Shown: positions 15,059-57,666 of the stretch, one piece after another | Layout: every line of letters begins with the position of its first letter | Numbering within the stretch: the stretch's first letter is position 1 | Origin: Phage NC-G | Reading direction: 5' to 3' (one strand) | Length of the DNA: 64,000 nt | Sequence record: MK310184 | The notes under the pieces: generated by a model | Database searches by the model: none | What the model was told of the DNA's origin: nothing | The model's input: the letters and a program-made list of their open reading frames with translations, nothing else | Position numbers and translations under genes: made by a program

Positions 15059-16618
15059 ATGAAAAAGAATGCATTAGTTCAAAAATGGTCCGCTCTGCTG
15101 GAAAACGAAGCTCTTCCTGAAATCGTTGGTGCTTCTAAACAAGCTATCATCGCTAAAATTTTCGAAAACCAGGAACAAGACATCCTGACTGCTCCGGAAT
15201 ACCGTGACGAAAAAATCTCTGAAGCATTTGGTTCTTTCCTGACCGAAGCTGAAATCGGTGGTGACCACGGTTATGATGCTACCAATATCGCTGCTGGCCA
15301 GACCTCTGGTGCAGTAACTCAGATTGGGCCGGCAGTAATGGGTATGGTTCGTCGTGCTATTCCTCATCTGATTGCTTTTGATATTTGTGGTGTCCAGCCT
15401 CTGAATAACCCTACCGGTCAGGTATTTGCACTGCGTGCAGTATATGGTAAAGACCCTATCGCTGCAGGCGCTAAAGAAGCTTTCCATCCGATGTATGCTC
15501 CGAACGCTATGTTCTCTGGTCAGGGTGCTGCTGAAACTTTCGAAGCACTGGCTGCAAGCAAAGTTCTGGAAGTTGGTAAAATTTATTCTCACTTCTTCGA
15601 AGCTACCGGTTCTGCACACTTCCAGGCTGTTGAAGCTGTAACCGTTGATGCAGGCGCTACTGATGCCGCTAAACTGGATGCTGCTGTTACCGCTCTGGTT
15701 GAAGCTGGTCAGCTGGCTGAAATCGCTGAAGGTATGGCTACTTCTATCGCCGAACTTCAGGAAGGTTTCAACGGTTCTACCGATAACCCGTGGAACGAAA
15801 TGGGCTTCCGCATCGACAAACAAGTTATCGAAGCTAAATCTCGTCAGCTGAAAGCAAGCTACTCTATCGAACTGGCACAGGACCTTCGTGCAGTACACGG
15901 TATGGATGCAGATGCTGAACTGTCCGGTATCCTTGCTACCGAAATTATGCTCGAAATCAACCGTGAAGTTATCGATTGGATTAACTACTCTGCACAGGTT
16001 GGTAAATCTGGTATGACCAACACCGTTGGCGCTAAAGCTGGTGTGTTTGACTTCCAGGACCCGATTGATATCCGTGGTGCTCGTTGGGCCGGTGAGAGCT
16101 TTAAAGCCCTTCTGTTCCAGATTGATAAAGAAGCAGCCGAAATCGCTCGTCAGACCGGTCGTGGTGCTGGTAACTTCATCATCGCTTCCCGTAACGTAGT
16201 TAACGTACTGGCTGCAGTTGATACTTCTGTAAGTTATGCAGCTCAAGGTCTGGGTCAGGGTTTCAACGTTGACACAACCAAAGCAGTATTTGCCGGTGTT
16301 CTTGGTGGTAAATATCGTGTTTACATCGACCAGTATGCTCGTTCCGATTACTTCACCATCGGTTATAAAGGTTCCAACGAAATGGACGCAGGTATCTACT
16401 ATGCTCCGTACGTTGCACTGACTCCGCTGCGTGGTTCCGATCCGAAGAACTTCCAACCGGTAATGGGCTTCAAAACTCGTTACGGTATCGGTATTAACCC
16501 GTTCGCTGACCCAGCTGCTCAGGCGCCTACCAAACGTATTCAGAATGGTATGCCTGACATCGTTAACAGCCTCGGTCTGAATGGTTACTTCCGTCGCGTA
16601 TATGTTAAAGGTATCTAA
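15059..16618 (+). CDS. 23: Major capsid protein gp23
   Basis: 519 aa (T4 521 aa); strong codon bias typical of highly expressed late gene; paralogous to downstream gp24 genes. Confidence 0.97.
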   Translation: MKKNALVQKWSALLENEALPEIVGASKQAIIAKIFENQEQDILTAPEYRDEKISEAFGSFLTEAEIGGDHGYDATNIAAGQTSGAVTQIGPAVMGMVRRAIPHLIAFDICGVQPLNNPTGQVFALRAVYGKDPIAAGAKEAFHPMYAPNAMFSGQGAAETFEALAASKVLEVGKIYSHFFEATGSAHFQAVEAVTVDAGATDAAKLDAAVTALVEAGQLAEIAEGMATSIAELQEGFNGSTDNPWNEMGFRIDKQVIEAKSRQLKASYSIELAQDLRAVHGMDADAELSGILATEIMLEINREVIDWINYSAQVGKSGMTNTVGAKAGVFDFQDPIDIRGARWAGESFKALLFQIDKEAAEIARQTGRGAGNFIIASRNVVNVLAAVDTSVSYAAQGLGQGFNVDTTKAVFAGVLGGKYRVYIDQYARSDYFTIGYKGSNEMDAGIYYAPYVALTPLRGSDPKNFQPVMGFKTRYGIGINPFADPAAQAPTKRIQNGMPDIVNSLGLNGYFRRVYVKGI

Positions 16619-16633
16619 TATAAACCTTATTAT

Positions 16634-16655
16634 GGGAGACTTCGGTCTCCCATTC
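16634..16655 (+). terminator. Hairpin terminator after gene 23 (GGGAGAC-UUCG-GUCUCCC)
   Basis: gggagacttcggtctccc followed by attcttgtt just after the gene 23 stop. Confidence 0.75.
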
Positions 16656-16666
16656 TTGTTTCTATA

Positions 16667-16933
16667 CTATGCAATCTTAACACGACGGTTGATGATATCA
16701 CGGAAGTCAATACGATTTTCTTGGATTTTCAGCCAGTTACCAGATTTGTCTTTGGTATGGGTAGAGTATTCACCGTTCCACCAGAAGTCGGTAGCATAAG
16801 CCATGGCTTCGTATTTCTTAACTAGTGCATTCACTGCATTACCGTTAGGATTGGAACCATATTTTTCTACCAGGGCTTTGATGTCTTTATCAAGAGCGGA
16901 AAGAGTAGTACGAATAAAGTTTAACTTGTTCAT
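16667..16933 (-). CDS. Hypothetical early protein (88 aa) encoded antisense between genes 23 and 24
   Basis: Minus-strand ORF; start taken at the ATG 8 nt downstream of GAGGAG within the conserved early-promoter cassette; occupies the locus where T4 carries segD (from memory). Confidence 0.55.
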   Translation of the reverse strand: MNKLNFIRTTLSALDKDIKALVEKYGSNPNGNAVNALVKKYEAMAYATDFWWNGEYSTHTKDKSGNWLKIQENRIDFRDIINRRVKIA

Positions 16934-16992
16934 TTTTAATCTCCTCATGTTTTGATAGGTCTATAGTAACATGTGATAACCTTGCTGTAAAC
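16934..16992 (-). promoter_or_regulatory. Early-promoter cassette (GTTTAC -35, TACTAT -10, conserved leader with GAGGAG)
   Basis: Minus-strand reading: GTTTAC-N18-TACTATAGACCTATCAAAACATGAGGAGATTAAAAATG; same cassette recurs at least six more times in the window. Confidence 0.65.
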
Positions 16993-16998
16993 AACTTT

Positions 16999-17006
16999 TA
17001 TAAATA
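16999..17006 (+). promoter_or_regulatory. Late promoter TATAAATA upstream of gene 24
   Basis: Exact TATAAATA 29 nt upstream of the gene 24 ATG. Confidence 0.7.
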
Positions 17007-17034: not shown

Positions 17035-18318
17035 ATGGCAAAGATTAACGAATTACTGCGCGAGTCAACAACTACTTCTAGCAACTCATTGGGTCGCCCT
17101 AATCTTGTTGCTTTGACCCGTGCTACAACCAAATTGATTTACCGTGATATTATTGCTGAACAACGTACTAGCCAGCCTATTGCTGCATTGTATGGTGTCA
17201 AATATCTTACTCCTGATAATGAATTTAGCTTCCAAACTGGTGCCGTTTATGGTGGTGAAGTTGGTTCTAAAGACCGTGAAACTATCCCGGAACTCACAGA
17301 TAAGGCCCAGGCTATTGCCAAGGGTGAATATTTCAAGTATCAGAACATAGTTTATAAGGCTCTTCAAGCAAGCCCACTCGCATCCACTAGCGCTACAGAA
17401 TTGACTGATGCCCTTCAAGAAGGTTTGGTGTCATTAACATGTCGTCTGGTTCCTGATGCGGCTCACACAGAGAAATTCGAAGCAGGTGATGTTGAAATTA
17501 GTAATGCAGTATTCCAGGTTAATAAATGGAACGCACCTGTTAAGTCTCGTAAACTTAAAACCGCTTTGACTGTAGAACTAGCCCAAGACATGGAATCCAA
17601 TGGCTTCGACGCCCCTGCGTTCTTAGAAGACCTTTTAGCCACTGTAATGGCTGATGAAATCAATAAAGACGTACTACAATCCTTGATTACCGTATCCAAA
17701 CGCTATAAAGTTACTGGTGTATCTGATAATGGTATTATTGATTTGACTTATGATAGTGCTCCGGAATCTGCACGTAAACTTTATGAAATTGTTTGTGAGA
17801 TGAATTCTGAAATCCAGAAAACTACTTCTTATTCTGGTACGTTTGTTGTGGCTTCAAGTCGTGTAGCTGCAATGCTTGCGGGTTCAGGCTGGTTAAAACA
17901 TAAACCTGAAGATAATAATTGGCTCCCAGAAACTGCCTATGGTTATTTGTTGAATGGATTACCTCTGTTCTGTGACGTTAACAGCCCGTTGGATTATGTT
18001 ATCGTCGGTGTTAAAGAGAACTATGGTGGTAATGAAGTTGTCGGTTCTATTTTCTATGCCCCGTACACAGAAGGCCTGGATTTAGACGACCAAGAACACG
18101 TTGGTGCTTATAAGGTTATTGTCGACCCGGATTCATTACAGCCTTCTATTTCTCTGATGGTTCGTTATGCACTGTCCGCTAACCCGTACACCGTAGCTAA
18201 AGACGATAAAGAAGCTCGTGTTATAGATGCAACCAATATGGATTTAATGGCTGGACAGAGTAATATGTCTTATCTGCTTGGTGTTAAACTTCCAGCAATT
18301 ATTTACGAGGCTGATTAA
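17035..18318 (+). CDS. 24: Capsid vertex protein gp24 (copy 1)
   Basis: 427 aa, same length as T4 gp24; N-terminus MAKINELLRESTTT... and overall gp23/gp24 fold-family similarity. Confidence 0.92.
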   Translation: MAKINELLRESTTTSSNSLGRPNLVALTRATTKLIYRDIIAEQRTSQPIAALYGVKYLTPDNEFSFQTGAVYGGEVGSKDRETIPELTDKAQAIAKGEYFKYQNIVYKALQASPLASTSATELTDALQEGLVSLTCRLVPDAAHTEKFEAGDVEISNAVFQVNKWNAPVKSRKLKTALTVELAQDMESNGFDAPAFLEDLLATVMADEINKDVLQSLITVSKRYKVTGVSDNGIIDLTYDSAPESARKLYEIVCEMNSEIQKTTSYSGTFVVASSRVAAMLAGSGWLKHKPEDNNWLPETAYGYLLNGLPLFCDVNSPLDYVIVGVKENYGGNEVVGSIFYAPYTEGLDLDDQEHVGAYKVIVDPDSLQPSISLMVRYALSANPYTVAKDDKEARVIDATNMDLMAGQSNMSYLLGVKLPAIIYEAD

Positions 18319-19598
18319 TGTCTAAGATTATAGACCTAATTAAAGAATCCACATTGACGGCTGCCAACTCGGTTGGCCGTCCTGCTCTTCTTTCATACAC
18401 CCAAGCAACTAATAAACGAATCTTTAAAGCCCTAGTTGCTGAACAAAAAACAAGCCAACCTGTTGCCGCTCTGTACGGGGTTCGTGTACTTAATCCCGAC
18501 GACAAAATGACTTATCTTGGTGGTGCTACATTTGCAGGCCAGATTGGTATGTCGGAACGTGAAAATATTCCTGAATTTACCGATTCGTCTACAGCTTATG
18601 CAGCCGGAGATATGTTCCAGTTTGAAAGTGTAGTGTTTAAAGTTCTAGAAGCATCCCCTTTCGCCGGAACCACAGAAACCGACCTCGGTGAAGTTATTTC
18701 TGAAGCAGTGGCCGCTGGACATATTCGTATGGTATCAGATGCTGCTATTACTTCTAAATTTGAACAAGGCCATCCTGAAATTGCTGAAGCAGGCTTCCGT
18801 ATTGACAAATGGCAATCTGAAGTTAAATCACGTAAACTGAAAACTTCATTGACAGTCGAATTGGCCCAAGACCTAGAATCAAACGGGTTTAATGCTCCTA
18901 ATTTCGTTGAAAATCTGCTAGGTATTCAAATGGCGGAAGAAATTAATAAGGACGTATTACAGTCATTAATTACGGTGAGTTCTCGTTTTAAAGTCCAGGG
19001 TGTTTCTGAAAAGGGTGTATTAGACCTTACTAACCCGCGTTACGATAATGCCCAGGACCGTGCTCGTACATTATATTATTACATGTGTGAGATGAACTCT
19101 GCCGTCCAACGTCAAACTTCTTTCGCCGGGACTTATGCAGTAGCTAGTTCTCGTTGTGCTGCTATTCTCGCCGCTTCCGGTTGGGTTGAGAAAAAGGAAG
19201 ACCAAGACGAACTGGCTTATGGTGTATTAAAGAATGGTCTGCCTCTTTATGCCGATATGAATAGTCCATGTGATTATGTTATTGTTGGTGTAAATGCTCA
19301 GATGGGTGAAGGACAGACGGTCGCATCTTTATATTATGCGCCTTATACGGAAGGTTTGGATGTGGTTGATGAAGAAGGTGATACTTCAGTAGGTGAATTT
19401 AAGGTTATTGTTGACCCGGAAAGCTTACAACCTACAGTAGCATTGCTTGCTCGTTATGCATTGACTGCAAACCCTTATACCGTCGCTAAGGACGATAAAG
19501 AAGCCCGCATTATTGATGGCTCTGATATGGACAAAATGGCTAACCAAAGCCAGTTGAGTTCTTATCTTGGTGTTAAACTTCCACCACTAGAAAAATAA
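18318..19598 (+). CDS. Capsid vertex protein gp24 paralog (copy 2, diverged)
   Basis: 426 aa, alignable along its full length with copy 1 (shared blocks KSRKLKT.LTVELAQD.ESNGF.AP.F.E.LL, INKDVLQSLITVS, YAPYTEGLD, PYTVAKDDKEAR); ATGA-coupled to copy 1. Confidence 0.88.
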   Translation: MSKIIDLIKESTLTAANSVGRPALLSYTQATNKRIFKALVAEQKTSQPVAALYGVRVLNPDDKMTYLGGATFAGQIGMSERENIPEFTDSSTAYAAGDMFQFESVVFKVLEASPFAGTTETDLGEVISEAVAAGHIRMVSDAAITSKFEQGHPEIAEAGFRIDKWQSEVKSRKLKTSLTVELAQDLESNGFNAPNFVENLLGIQMAEEINKDVLQSLITVSSRFKVQGVSEKGVLDLTNPRYDNAQDRARTLYYYMCEMNSAVQRQTSFAGTYAVASSRCAAILAASGWVEKKEDQDELAYGVLKNGLPLYADMNSPCDYVIVGVNAQMGEGQTVASLYYAPYTEGLDVVDEEGDTSVGEFKVIVDPESLQPTVALLARYALTANPYTVAKDDKEARIIDGSDMDKMANQSQLSSYLGVKLPPLEK

Positions 19599-49382: not shown

Positions 49383-49441
49383 TTTGTTTTCTCCTCATTA
49401 GTTGGTAAGTCTATACTAACACATCATGAGGAGATGTAAAC
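49383..49441 (-). promoter_or_regulatory. Early-promoter cassette upstream of alc
   Basis: Minus strand GTTTAC-N17-TAGTATAGACTTACC...ATGAGGAGAAAACAAA-ATG. Confidence 0.6.
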
Positions 49442-56635: not shown

Positions 56636-56681
56636 TTTATTCTCCTCAAGTTGATAAGGCTATAGTATCACTACCATAGCC
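56636..56681 (-). promoter_or_regulatory. Early-promoter cassette
   Basis: Minus strand GTTTAC-N18-TACTATAGCCTTATCAACTTGAGGAGAATAAA-ATG. Confidence 0.6.
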
Positions 56682-56921: not shown

Positions 56922-56980
56922 TTTATTTTCCTCATGTAGTTGATAGGTCTATAGTATCTCAACCATAGACCATTGTAAAC
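56922..56980 (-). promoter_or_regulatory. Early-promoter cassette
   Basis: Minus strand GTTTAC-N18-TACTATAGACCTATCAACTACATGAGGAAAATAAA-ATG. Confidence 0.6.
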
Positions 56981-57609: not shown

Positions 57610-57666
57610 TTTTATTTCCTCATGTTTTGATAGGTCTATAGTATCATGTTTAAAGGGGTTGTAAAC
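57610..57666 (-). promoter_or_regulatory. Early-promoter cassette
   Basis: Minus strand GTTTAC-N17-TACTATAGACCTATCAAAACATGAGGAAATAAAA-ATG. Confidence 0.6.

Follow-up and report, generated by a model that had tools for sequence, protein, structure and literature searches.

A small early-type gene set antisense in the gene 23–24 junction of a JS98-like phage

Why do the late head genes of a T4-like phage enclose a small reading frame that points against them and carries an early-type promoter of its own? Single early ORFans with their own promoter between conserved genes are a well-known kind of element in T4-like phages, and the questions raised by the present example are whether it is a gene at all, how it relates to other occupants of this junction, and whether it is kept for its protein, its transcript, its neighbours or its own persistence. 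We have examined it in a 64-kb stretch of phage DNA (the window), which its sequence assigns to a JS98-like Dhakavirus (Straboviridae, Tevenvirinae); over the 651 nt around the open reading frame (ORF), identity is 100% with Escherichia phage EcWhh-1 and 99.8% with JS98.

The junction and its insert

A first-pass annotation of the window had placed an ORF at 16667–16933 on the minus strand, in a gap of about 400 nt and antisense to the late structural genes. We find 88 codons and a stop there, bounded by the terminator of gene 23 on one side and the late promoter of gene 24 on the other, and the gap from the gene 23 coding sequence (CDS) to that of gene 24a measures 416 nt. In the RefSeq record of JS98, orf173 (hypothetical protein) likewise lies between gene 23 and the first of two gene 24 paralogues. 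The features of the junction in the window are as follows.

15059..16618, plus strand: gene 23, major head protein; left neighbour, convergent with the ORF
16632..16653, folds on both strands: gene 23 terminator stem-loop ATGGGAGAC-TTCG-GTCTCCCAT, from a terminator scan
16654–16663, plus strand: T-tract TCTTGTTTCT after the gene 23 hairpin
16664..16998, minus strand: cassette of ORF, 5′UTR and early promoter, about 335 nt, with approximate limits set by comparison with empty junctions
16667..16933, minus strand: 88-aa CDS, equivalent to JS98 orf173 / EpJS98_gp173 / PHROG 6003
16941..16946, minus strand: Shine-Dalgarno sequence GAGGAG, 7 nt 5′ of the ATG at 16933; kept in Mosigvirus
16963..16992, minus strand: early promoter GTTTAC-N18-TACTAT, with the -35 at 16992–16987 and the -10 at 16968–16963
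16999..17006, plus strand: late promoter TATAAATA of gene 24a, invariant in Dhaka-, Gapriver- and Mosigvirus and in T4
17035..18318, plus strand: gene 24a, head vertex protein; right neighbour, divergent from the ORF
18318–19598, plus strand: gene 24b, paralogue of gene 24a

The gp24 paralogues 24a and 24b stand in tandem, are 57% identical and have overlapping stop and start codons; the duplication is common to Gaprivervirus VR26 and to two metagenomic contigs (P0013 and P0016), and is absent in Mosigvirus and T4.

The limits of the insert can be drawn by comparison with relatives. We read the gene 23–24 spacer in 14 genomes, six of which have an empty junction of 80–83 nt: Kanagawavirus PEi26, Tequatrovirus RB5 and PhiZZ30, Klebsiella phage Roth79, Moonvirus Moon and Acinetobacter phage Acj61. 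The order of elements in an empty junction is stop codon, GC-rich hairpin with a TTCG-type loop, T-tract, TATAAATA, ribosome-binding site and ATG. Set against these six, the window carries some 335 nt of extra DNA (16664–16998) that comprises only the ORF, its 5′UTR and its promoter, and the point of insertion lies between the terminator T-tract and the late promoter. The gene 23 hairpin is also present at the empty sites of other genera; it was the only element returned by an Rfam scan, where it scored below threshold.

The insertion reuses this terminator in both directions and sets an early promoter back to back with a late one. The hairpin, which lies 14 nt past the ORF stop on the minus strand, folds with a predicted energy of -20 kcal/mol on that strand (z -4.85) and -18.5 kcal/mol on the plus strand (z -3.9). 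Since it is stable on both strands, it is probably the shared 3′ end of the convergent gene 23 and ORF transcripts; how efficiently it terminates transcription on the minus strand is uncertain, because it is not followed there by a strong U-tract.

An early-type, protein-coding gene

The ORF product (MNKLNF...WWNGEY...RRVKIA) is a soluble protein of about 10 kDa without a catalytic motif; its 88 residues include 10 lysines and 10 asparagines, and its pI is 9.6. The earlier description of a small, lysine-rich protein with a WWNGEY sequence is thus accurate. The protein is identical to JS98 YP_001595302 and is matched from end to end by the PHROG 6003 HMM (E 4.2e-50; residues 1–88 on profile positions 1–88 of 90), which also matches all 15 aligned homologues. 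Pairwise dN/dS values (Nei-Gojobori) fall between 0.13 and 0.25 wherever dS is unsaturated, for instance 0.25 for the window and P0005, 0.16 for JS09 and P0013, and 0.16 for VR26 and P0005. Between genera the synonymous sites are saturated, and the reading frame and a length of 87–93 aa are kept down to 30% identity. These comparisons show the family to be under purifying selection.

An AlphaFold2 model built on the 15-sequence alignment has a pLDDT of 93.3 and a pTM of 0.79. The predicted order is helix (3–25), helix (31–48), β-hairpin (52–61/67–71) and helix (77–87), an α-α-β-hairpin-α fold in which helices 1 and 2 are joined by an invariant polar NGNxxN loop. The residues that are invariant in the family alignment are K3, F6, N30-G31-N32, N35, A45 and Q71. 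The basic character of the protein is also a family trait, the pI being 9.2–9.9 in 14 of 15 members despite identities of 30–40%. The full-length PHROG 6003 match, the low dN/dS, the stable length and the confident fold together mark the ORF as a genuine protein-coding gene, far beyond chance, and dispose of the reservation made at first pass that it might not be conserved as coding in relatives. For its start, 88 aa is a better call than the 93 aa given in some records, since the ATG of the longer version overlaps the Shine-Dalgarno sequence and is not common to the homologues.

Two alleles of the gene are frameshifted. In phage mogra (MN850579, 1613–1881) a 1-nt deletion in an A5 run leaves pieces of 38 and 51 aa, and in 310Ecol104PP (P0007) the frame changes after residue 42. 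These alleles suggest either that the gene is dispensable on laboratory hosts or that homopolymer sequencing errors have occurred; the 1-nt deletion in mogra could be such an error.

The ORF also appears to be an early-class gene. The first-pass annotation had given it a GTTTAC/TACTAT early cassette of its own, antisense to the late genes, and this proves to be a consensus T4-type promoter that is conserved in three genera. Its spacer is 18 nt long, with a TG two bases before the -10. Matches to GTTTAC-N16-19-TANNAT number 10 in the 64-kb window, where 1.1 would be expected by comparison with shuffled sequence, and all 10 lie on the minus strand. A stretch running from TTATTTATAAA to TTGTTTACA is invariant across Dhaka-, Gapriver- and Mosigvirus, and contains both the early -35 and, at a distance of 6 nt, the late TATAAATA box in complement. 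In all three genera there is then a TAnnAT -10 at equal distance from the -35, followed by a GGAG-type ribosome-binding site. The late TATAAATA promoter, standing back to back with the early one, supplies the AT-rich stretch 5′ of the early -35.

Parts of this promoter region recur elsewhere in the window. The string TACTATAGACCTATCAA, made up of the -10 and the initial transcribed sequence, lies at 16952–16968 upstream of the ORF and occurs in the window in three exact and three near copies, six in total where 0.23 would be expected. The other exact copies are at 56940–56956 and 57627–57643 and the near copies include those at 56651–56667 and 49402–49418, on the minus strand; the copies at 56940, 57627, 56651 and 49402 precede small minus-strand ORFs near frd. 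The 62-nt segment from promoter to ATG resembles those before other small ORFs of the window, and the promoter module of the ORF aligns with the cassette at 57666 with a score of 83, compared with 26–48 for unrelated promoters. The shared string and the likeness of the 62-nt segments indicate that the ORF uses a stereotyped early cassette of its own genome. Being repeated, this cassette could also serve as homology for recombination.

A site with several occupants, and its relation to segD

The same junction is put to different uses in different phages. T4 carries segD there in antisense orientation, in Slopekvirus Matisse a segD-like GIY-YIG gene lies there on the sense strand, and Krischvirus JSE (EU863408, 2158–2794) has two small sense ORFs of 52 and 50 aa within a spacer of 637 nt. 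An antisense ORF of 88–93 aa occupies the junction in Dhakavirus, Gaprivervirus and Mosigvirus; it lies antisense between genes 23 and 24 in JS98, IME08, VR26, JS09 and O157 typing phage 6, and four metagenomic T4-like contigs (P0005, P0012, P0013 and P0016) also carry it at the 23–24 junction. The suggestion of a recurrent insertion hotspot with differing cargo, made from the window by itself, is therefore borne out by the intergenic comparison: the junction may be empty or may hold segD, a sense segD-like gene, two small ORFs or the 88-aa ORF, and on this evidence it is a recurrent hotspot. The JSE pair, a third and unrelated cargo, is flanked by GC-rich hairpins and accompanied by TATAAATA-like boxes.

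The first-pass annotation had stated that T4 has the homing endonuclease gene segD at this place, which is correct as to both the exact junction and the antisense orientation, and had noted that the ORF product lacks an endonuclease motif. That too is confirmed. A Pfam search at E ≤ 10 gave no GIY-YIG match for the window protein or for 15 family members, and BLASTP of the ORF product against T4 SegD gave E 0.96, which is no similarity. The ORF and T4 segD thus share an insertion point, an orientation and colinear upstream spacers, whereas their proteins are unrelated, the ORF having no nuclease motif and possessing a consensus early promoter.

More telling is the arrangement in another Dhakavirus, phage IME08 (NC_014260, 2590–3640), where an intact segD, 56% identical to T4 SegD, and an intact copy of the ORF lie side by side. 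Here segD sits between the gene 23 terminator and the ORF, with its ATG 3 nt past the ORF stop, so the two genes would be co-transcribed and are possibly translationally coupled. The sequences of the window and of IME08 agree completely from gene 24 into the ORF, as far as its last two codons, where divergence begins; gene 23 also differs at its 3′ end, with a product of 522 aa in IME08 (annotated CDS of 1569 nt) and 519 aa in the window. This pattern looks like co-conversion of flanking DNA during homing. The same pair of ORF and segD is found in IME341, and among the matches listed for the junction region segD adjoins the ORF in only these two genomes.

Could the ORF region nonetheless be the degraded remnant of a seg-type homing endonuclease, as the first-pass annotation had allowed? 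The antisense segD of T4 at the same junction, and the colinearity of the T4 segD–24 spacer with the ORF–24 spacer of the window, are what one would expect of such a remnant. The protein, however, shows neither SegD similarity (E 0.96) nor a GIY-YIG match, is under purifying selection and has a confident fold of its own, and in IME08 an intact segD follows directly downstream of an intact copy of the ORF. With both genes whole in one genome the remnant explanation becomes vanishingly improbable. The coexistence also qualifies the view of the ORF as a different cargo in place of segD. That description holds for the JS98-like site, but the two genes are not plain alternatives, IME08 having both, and the ORF is not unique to the site, since homologues occur in Vequintavirinae-like DNA.

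The T4 spacer deserves a comment of its own. Between segD and gene 24 (NC_000866, 7234–7323) it is identical to the ORF–24 spacer of the window at 76 of about 105 positions, with a z of 8.6 against shuffles, and it has ATTTAC-N18-TATTAT where the window has GTTTAC-N18-TACTAT. The promoter half of the T4 spacer scores 51 against the ORF promoter and up to 44 against the other early promoters of the window, so the likeness of the promoter halves may be generic rather than a sign of orthology. No segD-specific promoter could be located in T4, according to a review (PMC2988022). The IME08 arrangement and the aligned T4 spacer suggest a route by which segD may gain transcription, a point that the review left open.

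Spread of the family and the likely role of its product

The ORF belongs to a family already on record as PHROG 6003, RB69ORF188c or JS98 orf173, whose members are hypothetical proteins in more than 200 T-even-like genomes and whose position is the same in the RB69-like phage JS09. A tblastn search located it in 237 phage records, with a single copy in each genome, at identities of about 90–100% in Dhakavirus, about 63–67% in Gaprivervirus and about 35–38% in Mosigvirus. Further afield, a profile search added proteins from three contigs (P0020, P0021 and P0022) that are 33–41% identical to the window protein. These contigs consist of long arrays of small same-strand ORFs without Pfam matches, with no head genes near, and P0022 is related to Vequintavirinae; the Vequintavirinae-type homologues are flanked on both sides by GC-rich hairpins. 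Acinetobacter phage ABPH49, a relative of the Vequintavirinae, encodes a homologue (AXN57849.1) in a small-ORF array, with 40% identity to the window protein and an E of 2e-18. The related Serratia phages Kashira and ChuuTotoro have the same DNA next to it but lack a detectable copy, as no Serratia phage is among the tblastn matches. That the PHROG 6003 gene is patchily present in two phage groups unrelated to each other indicates that it moves horizontally.

That the gene exists was therefore known, annotated as hypothetical in hundreds of records and clustered as PHROG 6003. What the present analysis adds is the exact anatomy of the insertion, at least four uses of the site, the coexistence with segD, a distribution across phage families and a confident orphan fold.

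Profile and BLASTP searches of the product, which the first-pass annotation had proposed, succeeded in one respect, by placing it over its full length in PHROG 6003, and yielded nothing characterised: by sequence, domain or fold the product matches no characterised protein. In a Pfam scan of the window protein no domain reaches threshold, and Pfam, NCBIfam and PADLOC scans of this protein and 15 homologues gave nothing significant. DUF5380 appeared in five close relatives only, at a non-significant E of about 0.1; PADLOC-DB gave no match, and the sole NCBIfam match scored 12.7 bits against a cut-off of 600. A sequence profile search of the PDB returned chance matches only (E ≥ 0.08). An exhaustive HMMER search of 1.84 billion representatives produced seven matches, comprising family members, two repeat proteins and one chimera, and a word-indexed profile search of 5.8 billion proteins found only phage proteins of the family, 87–90 aa long or truncated, together with the chimera (P0018). 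Searching the literature by gene name, family identifier and accession, we found no paper on the family. The non-family matches were set aside as follows. The matches to P0017 (1633 aa) and P0019 (772 aa), with E values of 3e-17 and 9e-4, are spurious, being the sum of nine and five weak repeats, respectively, in tandem strings resembling NGNG...ESGNW; P0018 (160 aa, metagenomic) is an apparent assembly chimera that contains family residues 31–64.

If the protein itself has no characterised relative, one may ask whether it is the protein that matters. Early antisense transcription might in principle modulate genes 23 and 24, by occlusion of the late promoter or through an antisense RNA to the gene 23 3′ end, and the layout lends itself to this: the early -35 is 6 nt from the late TATAAATA box, the arrangement is invariant in three genera and T4, and with no strong U-tract behind the minus-strand hairpin read-through antisense to gene 23 is possible. 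Against a main function in the transcript, dN/dS values of 0.13–0.25 with synonymous saturation between genera show that the protein is what selection keeps; the Vequintavirinae-like homologues, moreover, stand in same-strand arrays without an antisense target, and most T4-like phages express genes 23 and 24 with no such element. We regard this explanation as very improbable. We give just as little credence to a head-morphogenesis factor, for example a chaperone or regulator of the vertex protein or of the duplicated gp24, brought here by functional clustering. The ORF does lie inside the head gene block, and Dhaka- and Gapriverviruses do have two gp24 paralogues, but its promoter is of early type, on the opposite strand, with no late promoter; Vequintavirinae-type homologues are not beside head genes, most T4-like phages build heads without the ORF, and some viable isolates carry frameshifted alleles. 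In Mosigviruses the ORF is accompanied by only one gp24, which also rules out a tie between the ORF and the gp24 duplication.

A selfish or neutral passenger is harder to dismiss and is still improbable in our estimation. It would be kept by the repeated promoter and 5′UTR and by a permissive gap, or would mainly provide segD with a promoter or a landing pad. The repeats are homology of the kind used in PeSL shuffling (PMC2839356), the ORF is patchy among Vequintavirinae, and segD in IME08, 3 nt after the ORF stop, would be co-transcribed with it. Yet segD adjoins the ORF in only two of the genomes listed, and purifying selection persists past synonymous saturation, with NGNxxN, K3, F6 and Q71 invariant in three clades. 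Such long-term selection, together with the invariant motif, argues for a function selected at the level of the protein.

We hold it highly probable that the ORF is a real, early-type, mobile accessory gene in an insertion hotspot. Host σ70 RNA polymerase would transcribe it right after infection from GTTTAC-N18-TACTAT, and the mRNA would run towards gene 23, probably as far as the hairpin common to both transcripts; in IME08 segD would be part of this mRNA too. The product would most likely act stoichiometrically, by binding host nucleic acid or an acidic host protein, in host takeover or counter-defence, functions typical of small early T-even proteins, to which it is likened by analogy. Binding rather than enzymatic action is suggested by the want of a Pfam, NCBIfam or PADLOC match and by a basic pI in 14 of 15 members. 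DNA-mimic anti-restriction proteins such as Ocr and Arn have a strongly acidic surface. A mimic of that type is ruled out here, because such proteins are acidic whereas the family is basic (pI 9.6 for the ORF product). The gene is probably dispensable on laboratory hosts. Taken as a whole, an accessory early gene cassette encoding a stoichiometric host-takeover or counter-defence binding protein is the account towards which we lean, by a small degree; the binding or counter-defence mechanism as such we put forward tentatively. It is a bolder and rather doubtful step to see in PHROG 6003 an unrecognised takeover or counter-defence effector with a new small fold and an NGNxxN loop, one that would pass between the Tevenvirinae and the Vequintavirinae-like phages of Enterobacterales and would bind some conserved nucleic acid or acidic protein of the host.

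Several known systems offer points of comparison. AsiA, Arn and Dmd are small early T4 proteins of host takeover or counter-defence. The ORF product resembles them by analogy in its size class (60–100 aa), its early σ70 promoter, the lack of enzymatic motifs, a probable dispensability and rapid divergence; it has no sequence or fold similarity to them, and is basic where Arn is acidic. Morons, a topic of PMC2839356 as well, are autonomous insertions of promoter, gene and terminator between conserved phage genes. The classical ones are described in temperate phages, with expression from the prophage. As a single gene with its own promoter, placed between genes that are adjacent in relatives and, from its layout, independently transcribed, the ORF is moron-like, although its carrier is a virulent phage and its expression presumably falls early in the lytic cycle. 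It is a clean illustration of how an early gene with expression of its own is accommodated, in a virulent T4-like phage, within the most conserved of the late modules.

A further parallel may be drawn with the PeSL (promoter-early stem-loop) and ORFan cassettes of phages RB49 and phi1, for which repeated promoter/hairpin modules were proposed to drive shuffling (Arbiol et al., 2010; PMC2839356). Like those cassettes, the one described here has a small ORFan, its own strong σ70-like early promoter with an AT-rich upstream region, a stem-loop terminator at its boundary and a patchy distribution, and its promoter module is repeated in the same genome as a possible substrate for recombination (PMC2839356). 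It differs in that its only stem-loop is the resident gene 23 terminator downstream, with no hairpin in the promoter; its site is within a conserved virion module and not a hyperplastic region; and it has no demonstrated second flanking promoter copy or mini-circle. It thus matches the definition of a PeSL cassette only in part. Conservation, mobility between unrelated groups of phages, a confident fold and the absence of any characterised member make the PHROG 6003 family a reasonable, unexceptional candidate for counter-defence or host-takeover screens.

Users of the public records should be aware of some misleading names. The homologue in P0013 is labelled "NADPH-dependent curcumin reductase CurA" (JGI) and that in PQ341120 (EAWsc9) "glycosyl hydrolase family 25", and neither name is supported by the homologue sequences. 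In JS09 (NC_024124, 586–1585), rnlB (RNA ligase 2) is annotated as two CDSs, one of 720 nt and one of 150 nt. O157 typing phage 6, JS98 and T4 each have one undivided rnlB of about 1000 nt, and the split in JS09 may be a disruption or a sequencing error.
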